A DNA stretch of 64,000 nt. It comes from an uncultured virus (IMG/VR IMGVR_UViG_3300032322_002129) (taxonomy: Duplodnaviria; Heunggongvirae; Uroviricota; Caudoviricetes). The DNA is taken from IMG/VR virus record IMGVR_UViG_3300032322_002129; one strand, written 5' to 3'. Below are positions 1-64,000 of this stretch, piece after piece; position 1 is the first letter of the stretch, and each line of letters begins with the position of its first letter. The position numbers and the translations under genes are program-made. A model generated the notes under the pieces. The model was not told where the DNA came from. It saw nothing but the letters and a program-made list of their open reading frames with translations, and did not search any database.

Positions 1-69
1 CATCAGCCGCGCATCCTGTCAAGGGGTTTTTGTTAGAGCTTTGTTAACAGGATGCGCGGCTATTATAAA

Positions 70-525
70 CTACTTTACAAAAACTGTCTTAAGTGTTTCA
101 AAAAGCTGATTTGCAACACTATTTGAAAAATCAATACGCAATTCAGCAAATCCTAGTTGCTTTTTCCCAAAATCTGGTACCTTTATTGCATGCCGTACCA
201 TAAAGTAAAATGGTACACTGTTATTATTTAATTGTGAAGCATTTACCCCTATTTTCAAATAAGGATTATTGTTTCGCCTATACCAATGATCGTAGTACGT
301 GTTATTGCTATCTGTAGTGATAAACTCATGCCGATCATCAGACAGCGTATACGCACGCACGTTGTGCGTGCGACGATCTACAGACACATTTACAATAGTA
401 TCATCACGCTTCACACCGTAAAGAACAAACTTGCTTGGAGTAATTACAAACTTAGCAGGATTTGTAATCACATAATATACATAGCTTTTGATATACGACG
501 TAGTACCGTCAAATTGGGTTTTCAT
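70..525 (-). CDS. Hypothetical protein, paralog of 4690-5166
   Basis: Shared motifs PAKF.ITP..F and VN.SVDRRTHN; own promoter and RBS. Confidence 0.8.
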   Translation of the reverse strand: MKTQFDGTTSYIKSYVYYVITNPAKFVITPSKFVLYGVKRDDTIVNVSVDRRTHNVRAYTLSDDRHEFITTDSNNTYYDHWYRRNNNPYLKIGVNASQLNNNSVPFYFMVRHAIKVPDFGKKQLGFAELRIDFSNSVANQLFETLKTVFVK

Positions 526-635
526 TACTTTTCCTTGTGTAACTTGATTACTCTGCCATTATACCATTTGCCGCGCACGATGTCAAGAGCTTTCTGTTAG
601 AGAAGTGTTAACATCGTGCGCGGTTAAAGTATAAC

Positions 636-1028
636 CTAATATAAAAACTTATACGTAGACTTTGCCAAAGGAGTATTACAAAGATATGTGATAAACTCCC
701 TGAAATCAGGGAAAATCTCCTGATGAAAGTACACATCTGCATACATAAAATCAAAGCTGTTACCAGTACGAGTGTTGATAGTAATCTCACAACTGTTTAC
801 TGGTGCGCATGGTTTCAAGACCACGACACCATTATCAAATTGTAAGATATATTCTGATCCTGACTCCTCCACACGTCGCAGGGTGTGCATTTGCGTTGAC
901 AGACCACCTATTGTCAACGTAAACGAAATATTAGACATGTAAATCTTACAAGGTTTCATACACACTTCGTCATTATGTCGTGATATCGTGGCGTGCGTGA
1001 AAAGACTCTCTGTTGAACTAGCAAGCAT
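636..1028 (-). CDS. Hypothetical beta-rich early protein
   Basis: ORF fills the space between two elements; RBS AGAAGG. Confidence 0.75.
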   Translation of the reverse strand: MLASSTESLFTHATISRHNDEVCMKPCKIYMSNISFTLTIGGLSTQMHTLRRVEESGSEYILQFDNGVVVLKPCAPVNSCEITINTRTGNSFDFMYADVYFHQEIFPDFREFITYLCNTPLAKSTYKFLY

Positions 1029-1141
1029 GTTTGTTACCTTCTATTTAACTTCGATTACTCTGCTATTATACCACGTGCCGCGCACGATGTCAAGAGCTTT
1101 CTGTTAGAGCTTTGTTAACATCGTGCGCGGCTAACATATTA

Positions 1142-1399
1142 TTACAAATACATCTCAAAATCTTCGATAGCGATCAATCCCTTCTTCGAAGAGATCACGC
1201 GATTCACGTGCGCAAGAAACTTCTTGGCAAACTTCTCATCAAAGAAGCTGATCCAATCGTTCGTGTGAAAATCATGACGGAAGTTGTAAATCTTCCCTCC
1301 CGGCTTCTTTTCCTGCATCACCTTGTATGCTACGCCATCATACTCCACATAGTAGGTAACGTACGCACCGCCGATGTCCTGCATGAAGATGTTACGCAT
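1142..1399 (-). CDS. Hypothetical protein
   Basis: ORF between elements, AAGGA RBS, higher GC than neighbours. Confidence 0.75.
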   Translation of the reverse strand: MRNIFMQDIGGAYVTYYVEYDGVAYKVMQEKKPGGKIYNFRHDFHTNDWISFFDEKFAKKFLAHVNRVISSKKGLIAIEDFEMYL

Positions 1400-1523
1400 T
1401 GGGTTTTTTGCTTTCCTTGATAACTTCGATTACATTCGTATTATAGCACAGCCGCGCATATTTGTCTACAGGTTTTTGTTAGAGAAGTGTTAACAGTATG
1501 CGCGGTTATTATATAACCTAGTA

Positions 1524-1910
1524 TTACATAACCTTCACATCAGGATTACACAAACTATTTATCCATAATCCCAATATCAAAGAGTCTGCAAAAGACAGCT
1601 CCACATGACTATGCTCCACACCACCAAGCCTGATATACCAAACTGCTTTGTAATTTTCAGTATAGTACTTGAATTGTAATATCAGCAAAGGATTTTCAAC
1701 ACTAAAGGTAGCGTTTGCATAACTGTAATTAAATACATACGTTGGATTCTCTTCTGCATTTTTTAAGAACGAAGTTGCTTTACGAAAGCCATGCGCATGG
1801 AACATTTGTTCGTATGCGTTTATACATACTGTCTTGTGATCCATGTATAACGACAGTAATGTTAAACTATCTTTACTATCACCCTTGATAAAAATATGAT
1901 CTCTTTCCAT
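1524..1910 (-). CDS. Hypothetical beta-rich early protein
   Basis: ORF between elements, GAAGG RBS. Confidence 0.75.
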   Translation of the reverse strand: MERDHIFIKGDSKDSLTLLSLYMDHKTVCINAYEQMFHAHGFRKATSFLKNAEENPTYVFNYSYANATFSVENPLLILQFKYYTENYKAVWYIRLGGVEHSHVELSFADSLILGLWINSLCNPDVKVM

Positions 1911-1999
1911 AACCTTCGGCTCTTTCTATTTCAATTGATTACACAAGCATCATACCATACTGATAGCTACGCTGTCAACTAGTTTGTGTTAGAGAAACG

Positions 2000-2377
2000 T
2001 TAACATACTCTCATCTTGACAAGCTCTGTCCCATTGTGGTATACTACGTAGGCTATACCAGATTCATATATTAAATCATAACATGATTGACAAGGTTTTG
2101 ATATTGTAGGTTTATTATTTTTATCTATCCTTGCGCTATAACATATAGTGTTTGTAATATCAGCACGCGCACGTATGATAGCGCGTGCTTCGGCATGGAT
2201 TGTACAAACACTTGATCTATAACGCTGCTGCACAGGATGCGTACGATAGCAATTGCACGCAGCAGAAAAGACACGCTTTCCTGAAGCTATAATACTACCG
2301 TGTTTATAATTGCATTGCGATAATTCGGCAACTTTGAGCGCTAATTGAAAATTAGTATAATCTCTGTTGGTAAGCAT
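2000..2377 (-). CDS. Cytidine/dCMP deaminase-family zinc protein
   Basis: HAE and PCQSC zinc motifs. Confidence 0.85.
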   Translation of the reverse strand: MLTNRDYTNFQLALKVAELSQCNYKHGSIIASGKRVFSAACNCYRTHPVQQRYRSSVCTIHAEARAIIRARADITNTICYSARIDKNNKPTISKPCQSCYDLIYESGIAYVVYHNGTELVKMRVC

Positions 2378-2416
2378 AAAAAAAAATAATCCCTATATAA
2401 ACATATAGGGATTATT
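2378..2416 (-). terminator. Intrinsic terminator candidate
   Basis: 14-bp stem AATAATCCCTATAT/ATATAGGGATTATT with a minus-strand T run. Confidence 0.6.
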
Positions 2417-2425
2417 GAAACAAAC

Positions 2426-2938
2426 CTACTTATCTACTGCTACGTAAAACTTTCCTACTTGTCCTAAATCTACTTCATAATTCCAAAATGTTTCACCATC
2501 ATGTACCATTTCAATTTCTGCTTTTACTTTACAGCGTGTGGTGATAATTCCCCCAATCCGATACACTCCTACGGTACCAGTATGAATACTCCCGTACAAT
2601 ACTGAAGTATTACGCTCCATAGCAGCATCATACTCCTCTTTTGTAATCTCTTTTTGTAAAAGCTGCCTCTCTAGGTTAATAGCGTGATATGTGCTATTAC
2701 ACCTAAGCACACGTAAATCTAATGTGTCTTGCTTTTCGCCAAGATATTCAAAACCATCTTCGAATACCTGGTTCAGAAACACTGTTGGCTTCTGAACTTT
2801 CCACACAAGCCATCCTGTTTCACGATCTACAATATAATAATTTCCTTTCTGCTCTTTACCATCACACTTGATAATCAAAAACCGTGATAGAAAACTAGCC
2901 TTGCGATCTTTCTTAGCCTTTGCTGCTACTGATGGCAT
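2426..2938 (-). CDS. Hypothetical protein
   Basis: 170-aa ORF with AAGGA RBS. Confidence 0.75.
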   Translation of the reverse strand: MPSVAAKAKKDRKASFLSRFLIIKCDGKEQKGNYYIVDRETGWLVWKVQKPTVFLNQVFEDGFEYLGEKQDTLDLRVLRCNSTYHAINLERQLLQKEITKEEYDAAMERNTSVLYGSIHTGTVGVYRIGGIITTRCKVKAEIEMVHDGETFWNYEVDLGQVGKFYVAVDK

Positions 2939-3070
2939 GAAACATTCCTTTGCTAAAAATCCTGAAAAGAGAATTGCTTACCTAGTTGCTTACCTTATGG
3001 TTTTATTATACCATACGTTGCGCGGGAGTAGTGTTAGAAAAGTATTATACTTACCCCCGCGCAATAGTAT

Positions 3071-3319
3071 TTACTTTGTTACAAAACTAAACTCATAAAG
3101 AGAATAATCATCACGTAGATCATCGATGTCCATAGAATATCCTAATGACTTACTGATATTCTTTAGCACATCATAGATCGTAGCTACACAACGATCGTAT
3201 GTGAAGTTAGGACTAGAAGCCCAATAGAGATTGTCTGAACCTGGAGTATGGTATAAAGCCATGTCGTTATCATACAATGCTGCCAACTTGCATCCTGAAA
3301 TAAAAAATGTGTTGTTCAT
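3071..3319 (-). CDS. Hypothetical protein
   Basis: GAGGAG RBS. Confidence 0.7.
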   Translation of the reverse strand: MNNTFFISGCKLAALYDNDMALYHTPGSDNLYWASSPNFTYDRCVATIYDVLKNISKSLGYSMDIDDLRDDYSLYEFSFVTK

Positions 3320-3536
3320 TATGCTTACTCCTCAAAGCTTTTATTCGAAGCTCTTCATTACAAGCCAAAGCACATACAAAATCACCAGTGTACCTAAAAC
3401 TACCATGATGCTGCTACCTAATCCATCCATAGGTTTTTACTCCTTTGCTTGATTACTCTGTTATTATACCACTAGCCGCGCAAGGTGTCAAGAGCTTTTT
3501 GTTAGAGAGGCGTTAACACCTTGCGCGGCAAATGTA

Positions 3537-4052
3537 TTACTTAGTACAATTGATCCATCTACACTCATCAAATGTACTAGTGTTCTTAATAACTACGCTC
3601 ATATCGGCTTCTCGAAACACAGACCTAGTAAACTCATTTTCTTCTAACTTTACACTAAAAAACCATGGTGAAGTAATGTCACATACAGTAAAATAATTGC
3701 GTAAGAATTGCGCGTTTGTCAAGTTACACTGAAACAAGTGTGCTCTGTTGAAATAACAATTAATAAACATACAATCACTAAACTCTACGTACCGTGCTTG
3801 TACAAAATCAAAGTAACAATTTACAAACACGCTACCGGAACAATTGCTACCAGAAAAATCACTACCGTTGAAACTTCCCTTATTAAAGACACATGATCGC
3901 ATGGTATCCGGCATCCTACATTCGTGAAACGCTACGCTTGTTGTGGTAAGATTGTCAAACGCTAGCCCATAAAACGACACACCAAGAAACGTATCATATG
4001 GAGTAGGGTTGGTAAGGCTGTCAATTTGTGCACTGGTAGGATTGGTAAGCAT
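3537..4052 (-). CDS. Pentapeptide-repeat protein
   Basis: Repeats such as FNGSDFSGSNCSGSVFVNC and CNLTNAQF. Confidence 0.85.
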   Translation of the reverse strand: MLTNPTSAQIDSLTNPTPYDTFLGVSFYGLAFDNLTTTSVAFHECRMPDTMRSCVFNKGSFNGSDFSGSNCSGSVFVNCYFDFVQARYVEFSDCMFINCYFNRAHLFQCNLTNAQFLRNYFTVCDITSPWFFSVKLEENEFTRSVFREADMSVVIKNTSTFDECRWINCTK

Positions 4053-4075
4053 TGTCTTTTACTTTCTATTTTAGA

Positions 4076-4270
4076 TTACTTCTCAAATCGATTGTTTACT
4101 GCTTGAGTTGTAGCAGCATACTCCGCCCTCGTGACGCATTTAGGATCTTTACGACAAGCCTCTTCTACTTGCTGTTGCGTCATATTCCTATGTGGCATAT
4201 CCGCTGCTCCGCATGCCAGAATAAACAGTAACATTCCGATTGACAGACCTACTACAATAATTCGCTTCAC
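4076..4270 (-). CDS. Putative lipoprotein
   Basis: Basic N-terminus, hydrophobic stretch and ILA-C lipobox. Confidence 0.65.
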   Translation of the reverse strand: MKRIIVVGLSIGMLLFILACGAADMPHRNMTQQQVEEACRKDPKCVTRAEYAATTQAVNNRFEK

Positions 4271-4382
4271 GATTAGTTTACTTTCTAACTAACTTAATTA
4301 CTCCATTATTATACCATACCCGCCCAACGTTGTCTACAGGTTTTTGTTAGAGAAACGTTAACGTTGGGCGGGTATGTAAGGC

Positions 4383-4580
4383 TTACTCCATCACGGTCTC
4401 ATACATAGCTACTGCGTCTAAATATTCACACGCAGTAATAAAATCACGAACAGGGCGGTATTCAAACGCATGCACCATGCCGTATACTGGATGCTCTTCT
4501 GATCGCACGTACCGACCAACACCCGGTAACTCTAATCGCTCATCTGTTTGCCGATCGTGAAACCATACTAGATACTTCAT
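4383..4580 (-). CDS. Hypothetical protein
   Basis: Own promoter element and AAGGA RBS. Confidence 0.7.
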   Translation of the reverse strand: MKYLVWFHDRQTDERLELPGVGRYVRSEEHPVYGMVHAFEYRPVRDFITACEYLDAVAMYETVME

Positions 4581-4689
4581 ACTTTTATCCTTTCTTGATT
4601 ACTTGATTACTCTGTTACTATACCACAGCCCGCGCATCCTGTCAATAGGCTTTTGTTAGAACTTTGTTAACAGGATGCGCGGCAATTAT

Positions 4690-5166
4690 TTAGTTACGAT
4701 ATATAAAAGCCATCTTTAACACCCTGAAAAGCTCTCTTCCTTCATCATTCGGAAAATAAATACAAGCTCCAATAGATTGTAGATGCTTTTCACGAAAGCC
4801 TCTAATACGTGTTGGTACGTGTGCTGTAAAGTAAAATGGTACGCTATCATCATCTAACTGTGAATCATATACAGTAATCATTAAACTAGGATTATCCAAA
4901 CGATTATGAATAGATTGGTAGTATTGTGATACAGTATCCATAGCAGTAAAGTTATTCATATGATCATAAATAACATCATGATCATCAGACAACGTACGTG
5001 AAACCCGCGTACATGTGTTGTGCGTGCGCCTATCTACAGACGCATTGACAATATCACCATACTTTGTAGCGGTAAATGAAAACCTATTTGGAGTAATCAG
5101 AAACTTAGCAGGGTAGTTTTCCCAAACGCCATTTACGATACGCTTTGAAAATCCTTCGAATTGCAT
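4690..5166 (-). CDS. Hypothetical protein, paralog of 70-525 (likely start MQFEGF)
   Basis: Shared motifs with 70-525; AGAAAGA upstream of ATG 5166. Confidence 0.75.
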   Translation of the reverse strand: MQFEGFSKRIVNGVWENYPAKFLITPNRFSFTATKYGDIVNASVDRRTHNTCTRVSRTLSDDHDVIYDHMNNFTAMDTVSQYYQSIHNRLDNPSLMITVYDSQLDDDSVPFYFTAHVPTRIRGFREKHLQSIGACIYFPNDEGRELFRVLKMAFIYRN

Positions 5167-5180
5167 GATAGTTATTCTTT

Positions 5181-5345
5181 CTATGGAATTAAAGTAAAAA
5201 CTTTTAGAATGATCCAAACAGTAAATGATAATGGTATAGCGATAACTACTATAGGCATGACAGACTCAAGCAGTTTTGTTTTTAATATAATCCAAACTAA
5301 AAACAGAGATGGTATAGCTATAATTAGTATAGGTGTAATGTTCAT
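5181..5345 (-). CDS. 54-aa two-TM membrane peptide with internal duplication
   Basis: MNITPILIIAIPSLFLVWIILKTKLLESVMPIVVIAIPLSFTVWIILKVFTLIP; below the ORF-track cutoff. Confidence 0.5.
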   Translation of the reverse strand: MNITPILIIAIPSLFLVWIILKTKLLESVMPIVVIAIPLSFTVWIILKVFTLIP

Positions 5346-5425
5346 TTATTATATCATCAGCCGCGCACGATGTCAAGAGCTTTCTGTTAGAGAAGCGTTA
5401 ACATCGTGCGCGGGAATATTATACA

Positions 5426-5797
5426 CTAGCCAATATAATACCCGTACAATCCGCTCAAATCATTTGTGTATTTGATAAGAGCGATTTCGATCGTGTCCAG
5501 TGTTACTGGAGTATCACCAGCAGCACCAGCACCACGCACACCACCAGCAGGGCGAACACCTAGCGCTAGCGTACTACCATCCCAGAAGCCACGCTTGGCT
5601 TCTGGCAAGCTAGGACAGAGATCACGTAGTACGTTTACCGTAGCTGCGTGTCCATTGAGATTTTCCGTAACACGTGCTAGCATAGCTGGCAATTCCGTAA
5701 TAGAAACGCGCTTCCATACCAGCATACCATCATCAAACGAGGGTGAAACGATCGTGCTAATCAGCGTGAGCTTGGTATCCTTGTGTAGTAAGAACAT
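5426..5797 (-). CDS. DUF1874/STIV B116-like protein, possible AcrIII-1-type ring nuclease
   Basis: ~120 aa, NLNGHAAT (GHxxT) motif, then L..LC and KR at the position of the family's NR motif. Confidence 0.55.
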   Translation of the reverse strand: MFLLHKDTKLTLISTIVSPSFDDGMLVWKRVSITELPAMLARVTENLNGHAATVNVLRDLCPSLPEAKRGFWDGSTLALGVRPAGGVRGAGAAGDTPVTLDTIEIALIKYTNDLSGLYGYYIG

Positions 5798-6026
5798 GGT
5801 TGTTGTCCTTTCTTGATTACATTGGTATTATACCATGAGCCGCGCAACTTGTCTACAGGTTTTTGTTAGAGATGTGTTAACAAAAATCGCTGTAATCAAT
5901 ACCGGTGTGTGTTGGATATTGCTTACTGTTGATCTTTACCAACTCATTCCATTGCGTGCGTGCAAGAATATAAAACATAACCATCTTGATAAACTTCATT
6001 GTATACACTCTTTCTAATTAGTTAGC

Positions 6027-6251
6027 TTATCGTGCTAGTACATCTTCCTTGACACCATCATACTCAAATTGCCAAGCTAGGATTGTAGGAAAATCTTCAC
6101 ACTTTTTGATAAAGGATGGTAGATCAATGTTCTTAAACTTTTCTGGTGCTACCTTCCACACCGTGAATGATCCACAATCTTTAATTTTGTCTAATCCCTT
6201 CACAGCTAGCTTTTCCTTATTGTCAATATATAGTCTAATTCCTACAATCAT
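6027..6251 (-). CDS. Hypothetical protein
   Basis: AAGGA RBS. Confidence 0.65.
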   Translation of the reverse strand: MIVGIRLYIDNKEKLAVKGLDKIKDCGSFTVWKVAPEKFKNIDLPSFIKKCEDFPTILAWQFEYDGVKEDVLAR

Positions 6252-6282
6252 GATAGTTATTCCTTGTTGTTATTTATTAGTA

Positions 6283-6630
6283 TTACACTGCGTGATATAC
6301 ATGATCGTCAAAATATGCTTCCATAGATTCATCATAATCACGATTATACCAATCGTTACTACATTCGCCATCAGCTAACAACTCCTGCATACATTCATGA
6401 TCATACGTTCGCCAAAACCTACCATTGGTAACATCAAACGTATGTTCACGAAAATCCGATCTACCGCGTGTTTCGAGAAACATAATTGCAAAATCTAACG
6501 CATCGTTCGCGGTATAGAAGATTTTACTATGATACTTCTCAAGATTTTCATCAACTCCAATAACAATAAAACTGTTATTTTCCGTGCTTGCGGTATGAAT
6601 GTAACACGCTGGCATACCTGGAGTAAGCAT
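6283..6630 (-). CDS. Hypothetical acidic protein
   Basis: Own promoter element and GAAGGA RBS. Confidence 0.7.
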   Translation of the reverse strand: MLTPGMPACYIHTASTENNSFIVIGVDENLEKYHSKIFYTANDALDFAIMFLETRGRSDFREHTFDVTNGRFWRTYDHECMQELLADGECSNDWYNRDYDESMEAYFDDHVYHAV

Positions 6631-6741
6631 TAGTAACTTCCTTCTATGTAAATTCGATTACACTGGTACTATACCATTTCCCGCGCAAGGTGTCAAGAGC
6701 TTTTTGTTAGAGAAGCGTTAACACCTTGCGCGGGAAATGTA

Positions 6742-7128: not shown

Positions 7129-7216
7129 TGCGTTTGCTCTTTCTAACTAGCTTCGATTACATTCGTATTATAGCACACGCGCCCAACGTTGTCTATAGGT
7201 TTTTGTTAGAGAAGTG

Positions 7217-54587: not shown

Positions 54588-54598
54588 GGGGAAATTGC

Positions 54599-57500
54599 AT
54601 GTCAACATTTAGTGATACTATTTTAGCTCATAAGTACCTAAACAAAGATCTTGGTGAAACATCATGGGATGATGTTGCTCGTCGTGTTGCTTGGGAGGTT
54701 GTGGGGAAGAACTATCCGAGGGCTTACAAAGAAGTCTACCAGATTATTAAAGATAAGAAGTTTATTCCTGGTGGACGTTACCTGTATGCTGCTGGACGTC
54801 CGTATCATCAGACACAGAACTGTTTTGCTGCTGAAACACGTGTTCCATTTTATGAAAATAATCAATTTTGTGTAAAAACTGCACCAATTAAAGATCTTGT
54901 TGGAAAGCCAGATCTAGTGATTATGACAACTGGTGGTACGTGGACACAGGCAGAGATTAAGTCATTTGGTGTGCAAAAGCTCTCAAAGATTACACTTCAA
55001 CGACAGATTAACATTTATATGATTTCTGATGGTGGTACGTTAGAGACGTATGAAGAGAAAGTGATTTATGCTACACCAGGTCACTCTTGGCGTGTGCGCG
55101 CTGTAAACACAGATACCAAAGAAGTAAAGAAGCAAGAAGTACAGACAAAACATCTGAAGCCTAAGATGGAGTTGTGGGATGTATACGATCGCGCACATCG
55201 TTGGACTGTGATGTCTGTAGAAAAGACGGATCGTGAAGAGGAAGTATTTTGCGCGGTAGTAGAAAATACCCGTGAGTTTGTCATTGATGGAGATATTCTC
55301 ACAGGAAACTGTCTACTGCTTGATGTAGAAGATACTCGCCAAGCATGGGCTGATCTCTCTCGCAGATCGGTAGAAGGTCTTTCTACTGGTGCTGGTATTG
55401 GTGTGGTGTATTCAAAGATCCGCCCAAATGGAAGCCCTATCCGTGGTATGGGTGGTAAGGCTACTGGCCCTATTGCATTGATGCAGATGATCAATGAGCT
55501 TGGTAGGCATATTCAGCAGGGTGGAAGTAGGCGGTCGGCTCTCTGGGCTGGGCTTCACTGGAACCATGCAGATGTTCATGATTTTATTGCATTGAAGAAT
55601 TGGATTCCTGAAGTGCGTGCGCTAAAGGAAAAAGATTTTAATTTCCCCGCACCAATGGATGGTACAAACATTAGTGTTATTCTTGATGATGATTTCTTCA
55701 AAGCATATCATGATACCAATAACCCACAACATGTTCATGCACATGATGTGCATAAAAAAGTTGTGAAAAGTATGCTAAAGACTGGGGAGCCCGGCTACAG
55801 TGCCGACGTTGGTAAGAATGCCGGTGAGCATCTTCGAAATGCACCAGTAACCGCTGATACGTATGTATTGACTAAGCAGGGATACAAAAAGGTGCGCGAT
55901 ATTGTAAACACTTCAACAGAGCTATGGACAGGAAAACAGTGGGCTGTAGCTACATTTACCAAGACTGGTGAGAACGTTCCAGTAGTACGAGTAGAGATGA
56001 CTGGTGGGCGTGTTATTCGATGTGATCCTTCTCATGAGTTTTTTGTGAATGTATTTTCTTTAGAAAATGCTCGTAGGAAATTTAGTGATGTTATGAAAGT
56101 CCGCGCACAAGATCTAGAACCAGATATGGTGCTTCATACATCACTACCACCAGTACACAACGAGCAGCAAGTAGATCGTGATGCGTACACGTTAGGCTAT
56201 CTGTATGCTGATGGAGTATTTACCAAAAACAGCGCATATGTACATGTACCATGTAACACTGATGCTGCTGCAAGGCTATACACCAATTTACTTGTTTCAA
56301 GTAGGTATAAGTCTGCTAAAGTTATCAATGAGGGAGGTTTAGCCAAAGTTATTTACAAATCAGATAAGGAATATTGGTCTGGTAGAAAGAAAACTATCTT
56401 TCCAGAAGAGGTATACACCTACAACACAAATCAAATTGTTTCATTTCTTGCTGGACTATTTGATGGTGCTGGTGTATTCAACGCAGATCAAGCGCGTGTG
56501 CGGCTAGTTTCAAAAGACAAAACCTTTCTTCGATCAATTGCACGTCTACTAGAACAAGTAGGTATCTTTGCAGGAGTTGGTAAATCTGGATATTCAAAAA
56601 CTGGCATGCAGCGATGGTGTTTAAATATTATGCACGATTACCTTTCTGCATTTGTTACAACTATCCCATGCCAGATTTTTAAACCTGATGTCAGTGAGTA
56701 TGAGTCATATCGCGCATCAGATATTCGTGTACTCTCTGTTACAGAAGACGGTGCAGAGGATGTGTTTTGCTGTGATGTGGGTGTTCCAGAGCACTCCTTT
56801 ATGGCTGAAGGTATTATTATTTCTAACTGCACTGAGGTAACAAGTGCTGATGATTCGGATGTTTGTAACATTAGCTCTATCAATCTTGCTCGTATTGAAA
56901 CGCTGGATGAGTTTAAGCATGTAGTCAATCTTGCAATGATCTTCCTACTCTGCGGTACCTTATACAGCAAAGTGCCGTTTGCAGAAGTTGCAGCAACACG
57001 CGAGAAGAATAGACGTCTTGGATTAGGTTTAATGGGCATGCATGAATGGCTTCTTGTGCGCGGGAAGAAGTATGGCCCAGATCCAGAATTAGCCACATGG
57101 CTAGAACACTATAGCACATCAACAGATATTGCAGCAGGATATGCTGATGAGCTTGGTATTAGCCGTTCGGTAAAGACACGGGCTATTGCTCCAACAGGCA
57201 CCATTAGTATTATTGCAGAAACAACATCTGGTATCGAACCATTGTTCTGCTCTGCATTTAAGCGCCGATACTTGAAGGGAAATACCTGGCATTACCAATA
57301 TGTGGTCGATGCAACAGCACAGCGTATTATTGAGCGTGGTGTTGATCCTGATAGCATTGAAGACGCATATTCACTGGCAAATGATGTAGAACGCCGATTG
57401 GCATTCCAGTCGTTTGTACAGCAGTATGTTGACCACGGTATTTCTAGCACGATCAATCTTCCTGCTTGGGGAAGTGATTTGAATAATGAAACACGGGTTG

Positions 57501-57688
57501 ACTCATTCGCTGACATGTTGATGAAGTACCTTCCAACACTTCGCGGTATTACGACGTATCCTGATGGTGCTCGTGGTGGGCAGCCGTTGGTAGCAGTACC
57601 ATATCGTGAAGCAGTGAATCAAACTGGTACTGAGTTTATTGAGTATGGGAATGAGAATGCGTGTGTAAGTGGGGTGTGTGGGATTTAG
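54599..57688 (+). CDS. nrdJ: Class II (B12-dependent) ribonucleotide reductase with two inteins; ~538 aa after splicing
   Basis: PGGR, QGGSRRSA, spliced N-C and NA-CTEV, APTGT, SGIEP, ISSTINL, C-terminal C..G.C. Confidence 0.92.
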   Translation: MSTFSDTILAHKYLNKDLGETSWDDVARRVAWEVVGKNYPRAYKEVYQIIKDKKFIPGGRYLYAAGRPYHQTQNCFAAETRVPFYENNQFCVKTAPIKDLVGKPDLVIMTTGGTWTQAEIKSFGVQKLSKITLQRQINIYMISDGGTLETYEEKVIYATPGHSWRVRAVNTDTKEVKKQEVQTKHLKPKMELWDVYDRAHRWTVMSVEKTDREEEVFCAVVENTREFVIDGDILTGNCLLLDVEDTRQAWADLSRRSVEGLSTGAGIGVVYSKIRPNGSPIRGMGGKATGPIALMQMINELGRHIQQGGSRRSALWAGLHWNHADVHDFIALKNWIPEVRALKEKDFNFPAPMDGTNISVILDDDFFKAYHDTNNPQHVHAHDVHKKVVKSMLKTGEPGYSADVGKNAGEHLRNAPVTADTYVLTKQGYKKVRDIVNTSTELWTGKQWAVATFTKTGENVPVVRVEMTGGRVIRCDPSHEFFVNVFSLENARRKFSDVMKVRAQDLEPDMVLHTSLPPVHNEQQVDRDAYTLGYLYADGVFTKNSAYVHVPCNTDAAARLYTNLLVSSRYKSAKVINEGGLAKVIYKSDKEYWSGRKKTIFPEEVYTYNTNQIVSFLAGLFDGAGVFNADQARVRLVSKDKTFLRSIARLLEQVGIFAGVGKSGYSKTGMQRWCLNIMHDYLSAFVTTIPCQIFKPDVSEYESYRASDIRVLSVTEDGAEDVFCCDVGVPEHSFMAEGIIISNCTEVTSADDSDVCNISSINLARIETLDEFKHVVNLAMIFLLCGTLYSKVPFAEVAATREKNRRLGLGLMGMHEWLLVRGKKYGPDPELATWLEHYSTSTDIAAGYADELGISRSVKTRAIAPTGTISIIAETTSGIEPLFCSAFKRRYLKGNTWHYQYVVDATAQRIIERGVDPDSIEDAYSLANDVERRLAFQSFVQQYVDHGISSTINLPAWGSDLNNETRVDSFADMLMKYLPTLRGITTYPDGARGGQPLVAVPYREAVNQTGTEFIEYGNENACVSGVCGI
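54821..55309 (+). mobile_element. Mini-intein (163 aa) in RNR
   Basis: Starts CFAAET, ATPGHSW block B, VFC block F, ends LTGN/C. Confidence 0.9.
55844..56827 (+). mobile_element. Intein (328 aa) with LAGLIDADG endonuclease at the RNR catalytic Cys
   Basis: Starts PVTADT, CDPSHEF, LGYLYADG and LAGLFDGAG, VFCC, ends IISN/C. Confidence 0.88.
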
Positions 57689-57768
57689 CGTTATACTATT
57701 GGCGCACACAGGAATATAACTTGTGTGCGCCTTATATTACAAAGTATATTTACACACAGTAGTAAACT

Positions 57769-58599
57769 ATGCAAGAAATACATAAAATAGAACCAGCATC
57801 AGAAGAATGGTGGCTTTTCCGGAAACCTATCTCAGAAGCAACGATTACAGACAATGTACTTCACTGGGGTACTGGTGGGTTGAATATTGATGGGTGTAGG
57901 ATTGAACTTGATGATGCCTCCAAAGAGATGGCTGGTAAGTTGAAGCAGAGAACTAACAAACCTTCAGGGAGAGGACTTCATCACAATCCTAAATCAGATA
58001 TTCAAAGAATAAAATTGGATCGAGAGATTGACACTTTTAAGTTGTCTGGTCGATGGCCAGCGAATGTAGTGCACGATGGTAGTGATGAGGTGGTGGGGAT
58101 GTTTCCAGATACTTTACCTGCAAAACAAGCAGAACGTGGTAAAGGTATTGACAGATCTACATTTCGACATAAATCTGGAGAATTACATGGTGTGAGAGGT
58201 CATAATGATTCTGGAGGTTCAGCAGCACGCTTCTTTTATGGGGCAAAGGCAAGTGTGCGTGATAGGGATGAGGGGTTGAGTAATTTTACCAAAAAACGTT
58301 CTGGTGGTATGTCTGCTACATTGGATGGATCAATGCTTACTGGTAGTGGTAATGAACGTACTACTACCCGCGCAAATATTCATCCTACGGTAAAGAGTAC
58401 TGAGTTGATGCGGTATTTGTGTCGTTTAATTACTCCCCCGCACGGAATAGTTCTTGATCCGTTTGCTGGTAGTGGAAGTACTGGAAAGGGTGCATTGAAA
58501 GAAGGTTTTCAGTTTATTGGTATTGAGATGGATGAGGAGTATTATACTATTGCCCGCGCAAGGCTGGAGCATGTACTTCAGCAGAAAGGATCTTCATGA
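57769..58599 (+). CDS. C-terminal half of a DNA methyltransferase (no motif IV)
   Basis: GTGGLNID, GRWPAN, HPTVK, DPFAGSGST; no DPPY-type motif. Confidence 0.75.
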   Translation: MQEIHKIEPASEEWWLFRKPISEATITDNVLHWGTGGLNIDGCRIELDDASKEMAGKLKQRTNKPSGRGLHHNPKSDIQRIKLDREIDTFKLSGRWPANVVHDGSDEVVGMFPDTLPAKQAERGKGIDRSTFRHKSGELHGVRGHNDSGGSAARFFYGAKASVRDRDEGLSNFTKKRSGGMSATLDGSMLTGSGNERTTTRANIHPTVKSTELMRYLCRLITPPHGIVLDPFAGSGSTGKGALKEGFQFIGIEMDEEYYTIARARLEHVLQQKGSS

Positions 58600-59537
58600 G
58601 CTTTTATGCAGACTTTGAAGATGTGATGATCGTTCCAACGTTTAGCCATCTAACAAGTAGGAAAGATGCAGAACTTACTGTTACGTATAAGTTTCTTTAT
58701 TCAATGTATCCATTTACTGGTGTTCCGATTGTAGCTTCAAATATGGATGGTGTTGGTACTCCTCAGATGGCTGAAGCACTAGCATCACATGGTATGCTTA
58801 CGTGTCTTACAAAGTCATATACAAGTCCCGCACATGGAATACGAACATTTGGCTTACGTGAAGGTATTTCGGCTGTAGAGCAGTATATTCTACAACATAA
58901 TCCAGAAATGATCTGTCTTGATGTAGCAAATGGGTATATGAGTACATTTGTTAATTTTGTACATGATGTGCGGGCTGTGTATAGCGGAACAATCATTGCA
59001 GGAAACGTTGTAACTCCTTCAGGAGTAGAAGCACTAACAAACGCTGGCGCAGATATTGTGAAGATTGGTATTGGATCTGGAAGCATGTGTACTACAAGGT
59101 TAAAGGCTGGTGTGGGTGTTCCACAACTTACAGCAATTATCACATGCGCTGAAGCACATCCTGAGGCATGTCTTATGAGTGATGGAGGATGTAGAAATCC
59201 AGGTGATGTAGTAAAAGCGTTTGCTGCTGGTGCATCTTTTGTAATGCTTGGTGGAATGTTTGCAGGTCATACAGAGGGTGGACACGTGCAAGGAGATCCA
59301 TTCTACGGCATGTCTAGCCATGTGGCTATGGAAAAGCACTATGGAAGTGTTGATGATTATCGCACATCTGAGGGAAGGGTAGTGCTTGTTGATCATAAAG
59401 GATCAGTACATGGTACTGTGCGTGATATTCTTGGTGGTTTAAGGAGTGGTATGTCATACATCGGCGCACGCACAATTCCAGAAATTGCACGTAAAGCACG
59501 GTTTATTTACGCTAATCGTCAAGTTAATCATCCATAA
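58596..59537 (+). CDS. guaC: GMP reductase / IMPDH-family enzyme
   Basis: ASNMD, DVANGY, AGNVVT, KIGIGSGSMCTTR, SDGG, FYGMSS, SEG. Confidence 0.88.
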   Translation: MSFYADFEDVMIVPTFSHLTSRKDAELTVTYKFLYSMYPFTGVPIVASNMDGVGTPQMAEALASHGMLTCLTKSYTSPAHGIRTFGLREGISAVEQYILQHNPEMICLDVANGYMSTFVNFVHDVRAVYSGTIIAGNVVTPSGVEALTNAGADIVKIGIGSGSMCTTRLKAGVGVPQLTAIITCAEAHPEACLMSDGGCRNPGDVVKAFAAGASFVMLGGMFAGHTEGGHVQGDPFYGMSSHVAMEKHYGSVDDYRTSEGRVVLVDHKGSVHGTVRDILGGLRSGMSYIGARTIPEIARKARFIYANRQVNHP

Positions 59538-59551
59538 AAAGGAGCTTATAT

Positions 59552-59776
59552 ATGCCAATGCCGAAACCACGTCCACGAGAGAATGAACAGGATTTTATTA
59601 CACGCTGCATGGGCAATGATACCATGGTTACTGACTTCCCAGAGAATAATCAGCGTTCTGCGGTGTGTTATCAGCAGTGGAGAGATGGCCGTCGTCCACG
59701 CAGTCCTGCTGAAAAGACTGAAGCAAAAGCTCCTTCACGTTTTGATAGTCTTAATACTGGTGAAGTTGATCAGTGA
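59552..59776 (+). CDS. Small phage head-associated domain protein
   Basis: P.P...E...DFI.RCM...QR.AVCY..W motif. Confidence 0.7.
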   Translation: MPMPKPRPRENEQDFITRCMGNDTMVTDFPENNQRSAVCYQQWRDGRRPRSPAEKTEAKAPSRFDSLNTGEVDQ

Positions 59777-59790
59777 TAGTAATTTTTGGT

Positions 59791-59831
59791 AAAAAACATC
59801 CTCTTATATAGATAGGAGGATGTTTTTTTTT
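59791..59831 (+). terminator. Intrinsic terminator
   Basis: AACATCCTC...GAGGATGTT plus T run. Confidence 0.75.
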
Positions 59832-59893
59832 ATTTAGTTTGCGCATAGTTTACAGATAGTTTACAGGCAGTTTGCAGGTAGTTTACGTATACT

Positions 59894-60712
59894 TTGTGCA
59901 ATGTTTACCAAGGATATATTATGGGAAGAAGAAAAATTACTCAAACACAGCAAACACAAGCTCCTCAACCAGCTGTGCGCGTGACAGAAAAAGAAGAAAA
60001 ACCAACACCACCACAATTCAGTACACTTACAAAAGATCAAATTATCGAAGAGTATAAACGATCGTACGACATCGATAACCTAACAACACCAAATGATAGA
60101 GCTAATCTTGATACGATGATTATGAACGCATTAGCTATTCGATCACTACAAGAAAAGCTCTTAGAGTTAGCAGTAGAAAACGTTATTGATAATGCTTCTG
60201 ATATTAAACGCATCAATGACAGTATTCGCGATCTTACACAAACCAATCTTGCCATTGAACGACAGTTAAGTATTGACCGCAAGACAAGAAGGTCAGAATC
60301 TGAACAATCAGTACTTGAATATATTAACTGGTTAAAAGATGCAGCATCAGAGTTTCTTAGCGATACTCCACGTCTCACAAAGATCTCTTGTAAGCGCTGT
60401 AATATTATGGTTGGTAGAATTAGTGGTGTGTATGATACCACATTCTTTTCTGCGGAGTTTCAATGTCCACAATGTAAAAAACATATCTATATTCGCAGAG
60501 ATGAGCGTGACACATTCTATGACATCAGAGATCCAGATTGGCGTAGAAAGTATCCTATTGAAATTATTCAGCCAAATAACGCTATCCTGGATGCACCGTT
60601 GGATACTGCATTAGTAGAAGATGATGTAATTATTAGTAATACGGTACAGGATGTTACAGAGTATGAGGATAAGGTAGTTGAGGTTTTTAGTGAGCCGCGC
60701 ACACAGGAATAA
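59894..60712 (+). CDS. Putative terminase small subunit (start likely 59921), with Zn ribbon
   Basis: Directly upstream of terL; helical region, L.I.RK.R, CxxC..CxxC. Confidence 0.45.
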   Translation: MCNVYQGYIMGRRKITQTQQTQAPQPAVRVTEKEEKPTPPQFSTLTKDQIIEEYKRSYDIDNLTTPNDRANLDTMIMNALAIRSLQEKLLELAVENVIDNASDIKRINDSIRDLTQTNLAIERQLSIDRKTRRSESEQSVLEYINWLKDAASEFLSDTPRLTKISCKRCNIMVGRISGVYDTTFFSAEFQCPQCKKHIYIRRDERDTFYDIRDPDWRRKYPIEIIQPNNAILDAPLDTALVEDDVIISNTVQDVTEYEDKVVEVFSEPRTQE

Positions 60713-60714
60713 CT

Positions 60715-63294
60715 ATGCCTATACGAAAAAAGCTAGATGAAAAGGATTTAGACCTTTTAGAAGTACTAGAAGATGAAGTGTGGTTAACTGAGTTTTTACG
60801 CAACACATCAGACGGTGAGTATAATCGTGCGCTTTGGCCAGCACAACCATGGAAGTATCGAGACTATCAAAAACAAATACTTACTGATAAATCAAAATAC
60901 ATTTCTCTTACTGGTGGGCGTGCTATTGGTAAGTGTGAGCCGGGTGAAGCAAAGATCCTTACCGTAGGGCGTGGATATATGATGTTGAAAGACCTGGTGA
61001 AAGAAACATCATTTCCCGTGTATGCGCTGGATCAATACTCAAACCTTGTTCAGCGTAGAGCAAGAGTTACACCAGATGATATGGCTCCAGTAAAAAAGAT
61101 TTATACTCGTGCGGGGCATTTAATACACGTTACAGCAGAACATCCAATCCTTACACCAGATGGATGGGTAAAAGCAGAAAACATTGATGTAGGATCGCTA
61201 GTTGGTGTATTGACACAAATACCCAACGATATGATTAGTCAAACATTTGCCTGGCATGAATTACGATTTTTTGGATATATTTTACTAGATCCCCCATTGC
61301 GTGAAAGTACTGTTTTTGTGCCGAAGTATAAAAAGATTGGTGAAGAGTTTAAGTATATTTGTTCTCTTTTACCAGTAGATGTATTTCCTCGTGAGAATGG
61401 GTTTGGTGTGCGTAGGGTTAAGGGTGGGTATTTTTCTACAATCCGCGCACTTTACAATGATGTAGGCTTTGATGATGACTACGTATTTTCCTTGCGTATG
61501 TCAAGCATGCCTGAACTATTGATGCTAGAGTGTAAAGATAATCTTAAAGTATTTCTTGAAGCACTGTTTGCTCAGTTTGCAGAGGTATCTGCGCGGGAGA
61601 TTAGTATATTTACACGCTACGAATCACTTACCTTTGCACTACAAACAATGCTCTTGCGCTTTGGTATTGAATCACGCATTACTACAAAAGACGAACCAAA
61701 TAGTTATAGCCTTGAAATACTTGATTACGAAAATGTGTATGATTTCTGGAAAACATTTACATTACCCGGTGTATCTGTTGATCAACTAGAAGAGCCTGTA
61801 CGTAAAGCACGAGTAAATGCACATCTTCGATATGATGAAGTGGTGTATGTGGATATGCCAATATATCCAGTACAAACATATGCTGTCCATGTGCGCGAAG
61901 ATAATAACTATATCTCCAGTAACATCTATGTACATAACACTGTAGTACTTGAAGATAAAATTATCTACGAGGTAGTAAACTATGAACGTGAGTTTCCTGT
62001 TACACCAGAGCAGGTACTTACCACAGCCAACCAGTCGCAGATGCAGCCATTGCTGTCAAAACTTATACAACGTTTTACTTCAAGCCCACTACTAAAACAT
62101 TATTTACAGAACAATGTAAATAAACAAGATGGTACGATGAGGTTTCCTGCACGAAGTAAACCATTCACGTTTTACTTTCGTATCGCAGGTAGTAAAGGCG
62201 AAAACAACGTCGTAGGGCTTCACGTACCAAAAGTGAAAATTGATGAAGCACAACTGTACCCACCAAATGCGTACACACAACTGCTTCCGATTATTAACTA
62301 TTGGGAACCTAAAACACAGCTTCTTATTACTGGAGTATCAAATGGTTTACGTAATTCTGTGTTGTATTTAGTAGATCAAAAAGATCCGAAGTTTAAGAAA
62401 TATCGTATTCCCTCGCACAATAACCCATTCTACTCACGAGAGCAGGATTTACAGAACTTACGTGACTGGGGCGGTGAGAATGATGATCGCTATGTTCAGC
62501 TTGTACTTGGTAGACACGGATCAGCAGCATTTCAAATCCTTACCAGAGATGATTTTAAAGTAGAAAGTTTTCCATTTCATAATTATCGATACCAGAGTAA
62601 TCAGAAGATGAAAGGTATTCATTATCACGAAGTATTAGGAACACCAGCTATTCCAGAATCAATCCAGCTTGTCATGGCTATTGATACAGGATTTGTTGAT
62701 CCTACCATTATTCAGCTTATTGGTATGGATAAGTATCACATTTGGAGAACCTACTGTAGGTATCACCTAAATCGTATTGACTTTACTGAGCAGAGAAAGA
62801 TTATTCATTGGTTAGCTACAGAATATAATGTACAAACAATTGCGATGGATATTGGTGCTGGTGGTGGTGGTGCTGGTATTATGCACGCACTACTCCATGA
62901 GGACGAATATAAAAACGATAACTATAACCAACGAATTGTACCAGTCATTTTTAATGAAAAGATTGTTGTAGGATTACGCGAATCTGGTGAGGAAGTAGCA
63001 GATGATGCAAAGTCACATGGTACAAAAGTACTAGTGACCGAAGTTCAATCAAGCCGATTAGTATTTAGTGATGTAGATCATGAGGGGATTTCACAACTTG
63101 AAAGAATATCGAAGCAAAAACTTAGTACTGGAAAAGATCGTTATTTTGTACTATCCGATCGCGGAAGTGGTGCAGATTCAAATGATCACATTTATGCCAG
63201 TTATATTTGTTTTGGCATTGCAATTGATCGTGGTTTAGTAAAGCCCGCGCAAGCTACACGAAAGCTACCAACAGTATCTGGAGTGTATACCTAA
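60715..63294 (+). CDS. terL: Terminase large subunit with intein
   Basis: R.YQ, GRAIGK/T Walker A after splicing, KIDEAQ Walker B, AIDTG nuclease, NDH. Confidence 0.9.
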   Translation: MPIRKKLDEKDLDLLEVLEDEVWLTEFLRNTSDGEYNRALWPAQPWKYRDYQKQILTDKSKYISLTGGRAIGKCEPGEAKILTVGRGYMMLKDLVKETSFPVYALDQYSNLVQRRARVTPDDMAPVKKIYTRAGHLIHVTAEHPILTPDGWVKAENIDVGSLVGVLTQIPNDMISQTFAWHELRFFGYILLDPPLRESTVFVPKYKKIGEEFKYICSLLPVDVFPRENGFGVRRVKGGYFSTIRALYNDVGFDDDYVFSLRMSSMPELLMLECKDNLKVFLEALFAQFAEVSAREISIFTRYESLTFALQTMLLRFGIESRITTKDEPNSYSLEILDYENVYDFWKTFTLPGVSVDQLEEPVRKARVNAHLRYDEVVYVDMPIYPVQTYAVHVREDNNYISSNIYVHNTVVLEDKIIYEVVNYEREFPVTPEQVLTTANQSQMQPLLSKLIQRFTSSPLLKHYLQNNVNKQDGTMRFPARSKPFTFYFRIAGSKGENNVVGLHVPKVKIDEAQLYPPNAYTQLLPIINYWEPKTQLLITGVSNGLRNSVLYLVDQKDPKFKKYRIPSHNNPFYSREQDLQNLRDWGGENDDRYVQLVLGRHGSAAFQILTRDDFKVESFPFHNYRYQSNQKMKGIHYHEVLGTPAIPESIQLVMAIDTGFVDPTIIQLIGMDKYHIWRTYCRYHLNRIDFTEQRKIIHWLATEYNVQTIAMDIGAGGGGAGIMHALLHEDEYKNDNYNQRIVPVIFNEKIVVGLRESGEEVADDAKSHGTKVLVTEVQSSRLVFSDVDHEGISQLERISKQKLSTGKDRYFVLSDRGSGADSNDHIYASYICFGIAIDRGLVKPAQATRKLPTVSGVYT
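60934..61938 (+). mobile_element. Intein (335 aa) in the terminase Walker A, degenerate LAGLIDADG
   Basis: Starts CEPGEA, VTAEHP block B, ends YVHN/T. Confidence 0.9.
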
Positions 63295-63325
63295 ATGTGC
63301 GCGTACGAATAAAAGATTATGATAT

Positions 63326-64000
63326 ATGAATAATGATACACCAAAACGAGTAGCAAAGGCTTCATACTTTACCAGTTACCTTGCTACACAACCAATTTAT
63401 ACTCCTCCAGTAAATAAATCACTTATTTCTGGATACTATAATCCGTCAGTAAAGCTGTTTGACTATCACGAGCTTATTAAAGTATGTCGATGGTTTTACA
63501 CGTTTGATCCTATTGCAGGAACCGTTATTGAACGTATGGCTGATATGTCGGTAACAGAGATACGTAATCGCAGAAAGGGTAAGCGGAATACTGCACCAGT
63601 TGATGATACAACACTTGCATATTACAATGCTATTGCAAAGCGTATTCGTCCACTGATTAAAGCCATGGCTCTTGAGTATTTTATCCATGGGCTTGCAGTA
63701 CCAGATTATACATTTGAACGTGTGCGAGGTGATCTGCTGTCAGAACATCTTGGTAGGCGTCGTGTGTGGGCTCCTGCAAAGGCTTGGGTGCGTAACCCAG
63801 AGAATATTGTACTAGAGCGTAAACCTGCTGGATTGGATCGTGCAGTCTTTCTTAAAATCCCATCACAAGATATTTCCTTTGTAAAAAACAAAGGATACTA
63901 TGAAGACGGGAACTACGATCCAGAAACATATCAGAAACTTCTTCGAGAGTTTCCAGAATATGTACGTGCAATTGAAAGCGGAAAAACAACTATCCTACTT
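63326..64000 (+). CDS. Portal protein, N-terminal part (runs off the window)
   Basis: Open frame MNNDTPKRV...CRWFYTFDPIAGTVIERM directly after terL. Confidence 0.65.
   Translation, partial: MNNDTPKRVAKASYFTSYLATQPIYTPPVNKSLISGYYNPSVKLFDYHELIKVCRWFYTFDPIAGTVIERMADMSVTEIRNRRKGKRNTAPVDDTTLAYYNAIAKRIRPLIKAMALEYFIHGLAVPDYTFERVRGDLLSEHLGRRRVWAPAKAWVRNPENIVLERKPAGLDRAVFLKIPSQDISFVKNKGYYEDGNYDPETYQKLLREFPEYVRAIESGKTTILL

Follow-up and report, generated by a model that had tools for sequence, protein, structure and literature searches.

The window and its replication genes

The DNA that we analyzed, a stretch of 64,000 nucleotides from an uncultured virus of the class Caudoviricetes (IMG/VR record IMGVR_UViG_3300032322_002129; hereafter the window), is part of a large tailed-phage genome in which the hexanucleotide CGCGCA, or TGCGCG when read on the complementary strand, occurs far more often than composition or codon choice predicts. 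An earlier note on this stretch, made from the letters alone, had drawn attention to the word and had read it as a binding, modification, or recombination site for a phage protein. About 91% of the window is coding, with genes encoded on the minus strand as far as ~50 kb and on the plus strand from 50.7 kb onward, and its G+C content is 39.2%, against the ~37% that the note had estimated. The gene set consists of simple open reading frame (ORF) calls, and 83 called ORFs were used for the coding counts.

The genes identified include those for a family-A DNA polymerase (PolA), a DnaB helicase (21200-22516) and, adjoining the latter, a DnaG/T7-type primase (22495..23376, minus strand) with an N-terminal CxxC...CxxC zinc ribbon and with DNAG_N and Toprim-like matches. 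A PD-(D/E)XK nuclease (12855-13646) and a RecA-like protein (15799-16767), both on the minus strand, flank a methylase cassette; these recombination genes (12855..16767, minus strand) bear on the Chi-like reading weighed below, and the window encodes a resolvase-like endonuclease in addition. The other identified genes encode ThyX, a class II ribonucleotide reductase and a large terminase (each intein-bearing), a glycosyltransferase, a PAPS-reductase-like protein, five N6/N4-type or Dam-type methylases, and one C5 methylase. No match to an integrase or repressor family was found among the window proteins, that is, in 64 kb of an incomplete genome whose relative, the IMG/VR contig G001, is itself estimated to be 63% complete.

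Over-representation of CGCGCA

CGCGCA and TGCGCG give 119 exact matches over both strands (67 on the plus strand and 52 on the minus strand), compared with 12.59±3.41 (maximum, 22) in 100 dinucleotide-preserving shuffles, none of which reached 119; the earlier note had expected about 10 by chance. Under a maximal-order Markov model, one of the checks that the note had proposed, CGCGCA ranks first among all 6-mers (119 versus 57.9; z=13). Thirty of the matches lie in the first 11.2 kb and 89 beyond (11709..63303; 50 on the plus strand, 39 on the minus strand), and the latter reduce to 81 loci when each of the eight TGCGCGCA palindromes, in which two matches overlap, is taken as one, so that the by-eye tallies of about 30 and about 80 agree with the exact-match counts; all 10 example positions given in the note recur in our site list. 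The dispersed sites have a per-strand mean gap of 1.05-1.24 kb with Poisson-like spacing, and both strands carry sites throughout the window and G001, without any switch from one strand to the other. The variant CCCGCA is common too, as the note had remarked, with 23 copies against 9.1±2.8 expected.

The word is not confined to one kind of sequence or to one reading frame. Forty of the 119 sites fall in the 5.8 kb of non-coding DNA, and the 79 coding sites fill all six frame/orientation classes (45 with TGCGCG and 34 with CGCGCA on the coding strand), which bears out the description of the word as present in both orientations and in coding and intergenic DNA alike. The note had been ready to abandon the signal if codon- and dipeptide-preserving shuffles erased the enrichment, and they do not: synonymous-codon shuffles that keep proteins, dipeptides, and codon usage yield 17.5±4.3 coding sites (maximum, 32 in 300 shuffles), codon-order shuffles yield 14.8±3.9 (maximum, 25 in 300), and synonymous shuffles that also keep dinucleotides yield 27.2±4.1 (maximum, 37 in 60). 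These counts, together with the conservation described below, support the view that the signal lies in the DNA itself, is under selection, and is no codon artifact.

Several simpler accounts were tried and rejected. A codon effect does operate in the window on CTGGTG, TACCAG, and TACTGG, which are frame-locked NCT-GGT codon pairs; CGCGCA is not frame-locked. Those three words remain ~2-fold enriched even after synonymous shuffling, and their restriction to a single reading frame marks codon-pair bias and not a DNA signal. TGCGCA and GCGCGC look depleted under the Markov model, largely because the motif raises the counts of the sub-words from which they are predicted. A dispersed repeat or miniature inverted-repeat transposable element was set aside because the flanks are alike in composition and not in sequence and the sites occupy all reading frames, and an RNA element because the word stands in both orientations relative to transcription and the window has no Rfam match. 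Iterative refinement of the motif as a position weight matrix drifted to overlapping CGCACA matches and was dropped.

Conservation of sites and their absence from imported cassettes

G001 (85,328 bp) is collinear with the window and ~92% identical to it over 55.5 kb, and it supplies our one close comparison; the distant comparison comprises four further relatives (G017-G020). G001 holds 164 copies of CGCGCA/TGCGCG (90/74 by strand) against 26 of the reversed word. Of the 112 aligned sites, 102 (91%) are unchanged, compared with 69% of 6-mers overall, 63% of those that contain five G/C, and 68% of those that contain two CpG. The comparison showed 10 losses and 14 gains of the word, mostly through single transitions. 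With coordinates oriented on CGCGCA, here and below, conservation is raised at the core, at +6..+8, and at -11..-8.

Four methylase genes lack the word altogether and are absent from G001: the N6/N4 DNA methylase cassette (13647..14756, minus strand), the C5 methylase (16771-17661), a Dam-like methylase (50700-51146), and a second N6/N4 methylase (53069-53782). The interval 48852-49625 is likewise without a site, and window-specific DNA beyond 11.2 kb as a whole carries 5 sites where 12.8 are expected (P=0.0125). The earlier note had singled out these intervals as free of the word and had suspected recent acquisition; the first point is exact, and the second is borne out for the four methylase genes, each of which is a segment missing from G001. 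Their absence from G001, together with the deficit of sites in window-specific DNA, indicates that the word marks old, core DNA, which gives it a practical use in telling core phage DNA from recent imports. The same comparison speaks against a methyltransferase target as the cause of the bias, since the only C5 methylase and three other methylases are lacking from G001, which keeps the motif. Relative to G001 the four methylase genes are clean insertions, and G001 carries other methylases elsewhere, a pattern of fast turnover in a set of orphan methylases. The 296-amino-acid C5 enzyme has its best PDB matches in the catalytic domains of DNMT3A/B (E ~1e-22).

A composite, strand-specific element

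CGCGCA is the core of a strand-specific element of ~70 nucleotides (nt) whose flanking features lie on the 5' side only. The element consists of a G+T-rich ramp (-60..-14), a T-block (-12..-8), and then (C)CGCGCA(C/A)A. Across 123 sites, T makes up 52-62% of the letters at positions -12..-8, and G is reduced to 2-7% at -9..-7; the mean T count of the block is 2.87 against a background of 1.51 (z=12), and its distance to the core is fixed. CCCGCA is preceded by the T-block as well (n=22; z=5.5), whereas CGCGTA, CGTGCA, CGCGCT, and other one-letter variants are not.

In the ramp, G+T climbs from 0.50 near -70 to 0.66-0.69 at -20..-11, against values of 0.48-0.51 throughout the 3' side (z=10). 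A further 34 independent sites, in the part of G001 beyond the window, reproduce the ramp, and it is present alike for words on the coding and on the template strand. Among the 903 6-mers with at least 40 copies, upstream G+T has a mean of 0.499 with a standard deviation (SD) of 0.015; CGCGCA stands at 0.598 (+6.6 SD), and it and its two overlapping words are the only ones that stand out. By codon position the excess is +0.17 and +0.23 at third positions and +0.06-0.08 at first and second positions, the third-position change being mainly a loss of A and a gain of T, with G also up and C down.

The G+T flank lies on one side and one strand, decays with distance, and is set through silent sites; these properties speak for an element that is read or acted upon in single-stranded form, which we consider more likely than a simple duplex binding site. 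The earlier note was right that the signal is real and overlooked both the T-block and the one-sided ramp. We met no counterpart in the literature examined to a one-sided compositional ramp of 50 nt that is written mainly through silent positions, and a literature search for TGCGCG together with phage returned no such motif among the matches listed, judged by titles and abstract openings.

The word in early promoters and hairpins

The minus-strand early-gene array (1..11200) comprises ~25 small genes, and most of its intergenic spacers carry a promoter/hairpin module that reads, on the minus strand, CCGCGCA-nnn-TGTTAAC ... CTTGACA-n'n'n'-TGCGCGG-n4-TGGTATAAT, after which come a conserved leader and a Shine-Dalgarno sequence. 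The module amounts to a sigma-70 promoter with a consensus -35 box, a 17-nt spacer with TGCGCGG at about -26..-20, and an extended -10 box. The T/A block of the general element here coincides with the -10 box, at a spacing of 8 nt compared with 7 nt in dispersed sites. Of the 30 motif matches in the array, 26 are intergenic, and they include 10 inverted pairs 45-46 nt apart.

These pairs form hairpins, with the word at the base of the stem, much as the earlier note had proposed in calling it the core of the promoter hairpins. In one example on the minus strand (560..640) the predicted RNA fold has a 16-bp stem of -32.6 kcal/mol (z=-5.9 versus shuffles), and the 3' arm carries the -35 hexamer and TGCGCGG spacer element of the next promoter. 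The variable triplet is identical in both arms in 8 of 10 window pairs, with three triplets in use (TCC, CGA, and AGG), and in 5 of 12 pairs of G001; that different triplets are each matched across the arms indicates that the stem is kept by compensatory change. No Rfam family matches within the window. The PeSL cassettes of T4-type phages, which Arbiol and colleagues reportedly described in 2010, are small early ORFs with a strong early promoter and a stem-loop. The array resembles them both in small early ORFs bracketed by promoter and stem-loop and in gene content that varies between close relatives; it differs in that its stem-loop is built on a word that is also spread genome-wide. The array is hyperplastic (1-11200 in the window, 1-15700 in G001), with whole cassettes present in one and absent from the other, such as 631-1052 and 7222-8014, which are found in the window only.

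Other sigma-70-like promoters of the window are without the word, and the dispersed sites were rejected as promoters in their own right, for their A-rich block has no T at the last -10 position and they are not co-oriented with genes. The promoter arrangement TTGACA-N3-TGCGCGG-N5-GGTATA occurs in three other, unrelated IMG/VR phages (five contigs), where the word exceeds its reversed control at most 2-fold. In two unrelated phage contigs (L012/L013 and L014/L017) a promoter has the identical spacer TGCGCGGAGCGTGG before TATAAT, a coincidence that hints at a role of the TGCGCGG spacer at host promoters of some bacterial group.

The palindrome TGCGCGCA stands at 22941, 25340, 25664, 27936, 34100, 50086, 52557, and 54571, six of these eight sites being at gene borders or in spacers, and its count matches the 8.6 expected from its own 7-mers. 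A perfect 34-bp palindrome (27923..27956), in the spacer upstream of the glycosyltransferase gene, is centered on one of these sites. Another lies within a near-palindrome (50075..50100) directly downstream of the TTGACA-N17-TATAGT promoter of a minus-strand operon; this site resembles an operator in its layout, and the operon begins with a putative zinc-ribbon/helix-turn-helix (HTH) ORF (49559-50026).

Relatives with words of their own and the search for a host bias

Among GenBank phages the window has no close relative: megablast of 11.5 kb against them gave no match, and the best PolA relatives there are 24-28% identical. A scan of metagenome contigs with PolA found one relative at 29% identity. 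The segment 17671-27600 is echoed in contigs of 11 further public runs (9 studies, one of them possibly the study from which the window itself comes), which contain 23-52% of its sampled words and bear mostly freshwater or aquatic labels.

A profile search with the primase family retrieved 32 IMG/VR loci, among them the whole contigs G017-G020, which have a replication and structural core in common with the window and do not have its early array. In each of the four a particular GC-rich word is over-represented, with its copies distributed across frames and orientations: CGCGCA in G017 (58 in ORFs against a synonymous-shuffle expectation of 19.5), GGCGTTA in G018 (58 against 10.2), CCGCGT in G019 (95 against 27.8), and GGCGGT in G020 (75 against 27.5). 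Because each word was selected for ranking highest in the very data on which it was then scored, the z-scores err on the high side; the G018 word (GGCGTWW) moreover prefers the coding strand 2:1, and the G020 word is partly a Gly-Gly codon pair. G017 also holds 17 TGCGCGCA sites. More distant PolA relatives show no excess of the word.

The bacterial genomes sampled offered no parallel. None of 457 sampled genomes (251 of the phylum Cyanobacteriota, 201 of the phylum Pseudomonadota, and 5 that carry relatives of the C5 methylase), a sample of <0.3% of the species in the collection, has a phage-like bias; the largest ratio of word to reversed word among the 251 and 201 genomes is ~3, versus 64:1 in the window. 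A signal like HIP1, one of the identities that the earlier note had floated, does not fit: the core is asymmetric, TGCGCGCA occurs no more often than its parts predict, and the 452 cyanobacterial and proteobacterial genomes hold no comparable bias. The GMP-reductase-like protein has no relative in the genome contig collection, and the 196 relatives of the C5 methylase (29-62% identity in the best segments of full-length matches) are scattered over many phyla.

What reads the word

These data point to an undescribed signal that is read by the DNA replication or recombination machinery of the phage. The interpretation of the earlier note is partly supported, in that what it said of promoter hairpins, of a signal in the DNA, and of recent cassettes holds. 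Chi, uptake sequences, KOPS (the FtsK-orienting polar sequences), and stoperators are all genome-wide words that each revealed a DNA-reading machine.

As the reader of CGCGCA we tentatively place first the zinc-ribbon DnaG-type primase of the phage working with DnaB, for which the word may mark the starts of lagging-strand primers. CGCGCA would then be the 3' anchor of the ~70-nt strand-specific element, read on single-stranded DNA. The zinc ribbon would grip the GC-rich core, synthesis would begin ~7-12 nt further 5' on the template, at the T-block, and it would proceed into a T/G-rich stretch that is A/C-poor and hence unstructured. Sites on both strands, at ~1/kb per strand, would suit a genome that replicates via recombination or concatemers. 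The per-strand gap of 1.0-1.2 kb is within the range for bacterial and phage Okazaki fragments. We rank this reading first because the geometry of the flanks parallels that at T7 primase sites, because a zinc-ribbon primase is encoded beside DnaB, and because there is ~1 site per kb per strand.

Primase sites of phage T7, as reported (Afek 2018; Zhang 2026), are strand-specific, have G/T-rich flanks and a second element ~8-10 nt into the 3' flank, and are served by a zinc-ribbon primase. The G/T-rich flanks are reported to raise binding up to 10-fold and to lengthen primers (PMC6136900), and the second element, ~10 nt into the 3' flank, is said to be read by the zinc-binding domain across an 8-nt discriminator, with T7 Okazaki fragments measuring 1-6 kb (PMC12839067). 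The window phage encodes a primase with such a zinc-binding domain at its N terminus, and the arrangement at its word is of the same kind, strand-specific, with the T-block and the G+T ramp lying 5' of a core 7 nt away.

Several observations weigh against a primase. Spacing is not regular, with a coefficient of variation of 0.80-0.98 that lies inside the random range. A ramp of ~50 nt exceeds, to our knowledge, any known primer length. The T-block and ramp were not found at the words of G017-G020 (0 of 4), and at least 12 of ~20 distinct relatives with the same primase family have no strong word. The core stands in the spacer of every early promoter, with the T/A block on the -10 box, which priming does not explain and which fits a duplex-binding repressor better. 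T7, finally, has 177 pentanucleotide primase sites in the lagging-strand region (PMC12839067), a number that by our own arithmetic is near chance expectation, so that there is no known precedent for a tenfold-enriched primase word. The T7 core is a tri- or pentanucleotide that is not over-represented, whereas the word in the window is a conserved 6- to 7-mer, ~tenfold enriched, with a flank bias that extends ~50 nt.

If the primase is the reader, this phage would be the first virus under visible selection for Okazaki start sites, and its element would be a natural high-affinity template for studies of how primases choose their sites. With the same reserve, we can picture a widespread lineage of uncultured, apparently freshwater phages that encodes its own replication/recombination map: a composite single-strand signal of G+T ramp, T-block, and GC-rich anchor, at ~1/kb per strand, that may be read by its own primase-helicase or recombinase. 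In this map the anchor would drift into "dialects" in sister lineages (CGCGCA, GGCGTWW, CCGCGT, and GGCGGT), the word would be written even where silent, and some non-silent, codon choices have to give way to it, and it would have been co-opted as an early-promoter spacer element and hairpin clamp.

A Chi-like signal in recombination or against degradation, also raised in the earlier note, is a live rival, although we rather doubt it. A helicase-nuclease (host RecBCD/AddAB or a phage enzyme) would read the word on the unwound strand, and the G+T stretch would serve as a landing zone for a RecA, be it the host protein or the RecA-like protein of the phage. Chi sites are words selected for use by DNA-end-processing machinery, and Chi-rich phages are on record: P1 has 50 Chi in 94.8 kb and LLS has 23 (one per 1.86 kb), Chi being their most frequent octamer (PMC12315714). 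Like Chi in these phages and in bacteria, the word in the window is a short, asymmetric top word that recurs about once per 1-2 kb; in P1, as in the window, the sites occupy both strands (15+/12- in the first 50 kb of P1), and flank context modulates Chi activity. For Escherichia coli Chi, A/G at nt 4-7 of the 3' flank is reported to matter (PMC5041463), and the window word, read as TGCGCGG, has an A-block ~7-11 nt into its 3' flank. RecA is said to favor a TGG-repeat sequence resembling Chi (PMC3763553). The phage encodes RecA-like and PD-(D/E)XK proteins, and the words differ among relatives as Chi differs among hosts.

The strong over-representation fits a Chi-like signal, but other features fit poorly. 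The core in the window is a C/G-alternating 6- to 7-mer, its density is 2-4 times that of Chi, and it has a fixed T-block and a one-sided 50-nt ramp; the 27 P1 Chi sites have no G+T ramp, and T-block and ramp fit opposite readings of which strand is "Chi." Chi-rich lambdoid phages are reported to be those without Rec genes of their own (PMC12315714; Zheng et al. 2025), whereas this phage has its own recombination module, with RecA-like and nuclease genes. The absence of a comparable excess from the Cyanobacteriota and Pseudomonadota genomes also counts against a host Chi, though the host may be among the unsampled genomes.

Unlikely, to our minds, is a reading in which the sites are half-sites of a phage-encoded protein that binds duplex DNA, shuts early promoters through the spacer and the -10 box, and also binds genome-wide in the manner of a nucleoid protein, as TF1 of phage SPO1 does. 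This reading explains promoter placement best: TGCGCGG sits at -26..-20 of the consensus promoters of the array, the T/A block falls on the -10 box with nearly the spacing of the dispersed sites, and every module has two inverted copies. The eight palindromes would be full sites, six of them at gene borders and one just downstream of the promoter of the operon led by the zinc-ribbon/HTH ORF, and an A-tract one helical turn from the core is the layout of an IHF site. The leading 155-amino-acid ORF of that operon (49559..50026, minus strand), which has an N-terminal Cys-rich ribbon and weak HTH matches (E 0.003-0.05), is a candidate for the duplex-DNA reader.

Such a protein accounts neither for the ramp nor for how many sites there are. 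A duplex binder would hardly need 50 nt of flank with G+T enriched on just one of the strands, the ~200 genic sites per genome make no regulatory sense, the palindromes do not exceed the number predicted from their 7-mers, and the other sigma-70-like promoters do without the word. The HTH matches are, besides, below Pfam cut-offs, and no HU/IHF-type gene was found in the 64-kb window or in the 25 further G001 ORFs scanned. The stoperators of Cluster A mycobacteriophages, ~25-35 copies co-oriented with transcription in temperate phages with a known repressor, are similar in being dozens of asymmetric sites in spacers and genes, with the same site at the early promoter. The window differs from them in its mixed orientation to transcription (45:34), its ~120 copies in 64 kb, and the lack of any repressor or integrase seen in 64 kb of an incomplete genome; given the mixed orientation, the stoperator-like signal suggested in the earlier note is not supported. 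Should the reader be a nuclease-helicase or a repressor and not a primase, the word would define a Chi-type or shut-off system not described before, in a group of phages that many aquatic metagenomes contain.

Improbable, in our estimate, are site-specific nick sites like those of phage T5, with the ramp as the trace of repeated one-way resection and resynthesis from the nick. The T5 major nick consensus, reported as 5'-R/GCGCRGG-3' (PMC3517423), is a similar GC-rich heptamer from a phage of ~39% G+C and is close to TGCGCGG(G/A). The nick systems described there (T5, the phiKMV group, and tf) involve one strand and few sites (PMC3517423), whereas here hundreds of sites occupy both strands about every kb (67/52 in the window, 90/74 in G001). 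A process that starts at a fixed point would indeed leave a one-sided gradient decaying with distance, but the eight palindromes would yield double-strand breaks, and at third codon positions the ramp shows mainly a depletion of A and an excess of T, not the C-to-T and A-to-G of deamination.

We give very little credence to an uptake-like sequence or other host genome word passively carried by the phage. A density of ~1 per kb in both orientations and all frames, an AT-rich flanking segment, and inverted pairs in spacers do recall the uptake signal sequences of Pasteurellaceae and the DNA uptake sequences of Neisseria. Uptake sequences, however, accumulate by a molecular drive that depends on chromosomal DNA being taken up and recombined again and again, which is not the situation of a phage in whose 64 kb neither integrase nor repressor was seen; no sampled genome has the bias, and newly acquired phage cassettes lack the word.

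Other features of the window

Genes for a dCMP deaminase, ThyX, a MazG-like pyrophosphatase, and a glycosyltransferase (2000-2377, 11249-11941, 26720-27904, and 51594-52217) suggest a modified-DNA gene set, the glycosyltransferase of which is conserved in each of the four distant relatives. Beyond the window, G001 (L009 9408-14485) adds two more glycosyltransferases, a DegT aminotransferase, a GNAT protein, and a "nucleotide modification associated domain 1" protein. A pentapeptide-repeat protein encoded among the early genes (3537-4052) is a possible DNA mimic directed against a host DNA enzyme.

The inteins of the ribonucleotide reductase and large terminase (54599-57688 and 60715-63294) contain LAGLIDADG domains, and a free-standing LAGLIDADG endonuclease is encoded at 45427-46233; the reductase intein region (55792-56827) has no alignment in G001. 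A divergent intergenic region (50174-50290), at which both the coding strand and the GC skew change over, contains iteron-like tandem repeats in three sets of 11- to 13-nt units and is therefore a candidate origin. A further repeat of ~5.5 copies of an 11-nt unit (59835-59896) lies upstream of the gene that precedes the large terminase. Across the window, several 6-bp palindromes are avoided (GATATC, 4 versus 37.8; AAGCTT, 14 versus 50; and ATGCAT, 10 versus 48.5), as is GTAC, the pattern expected under restriction pressure.

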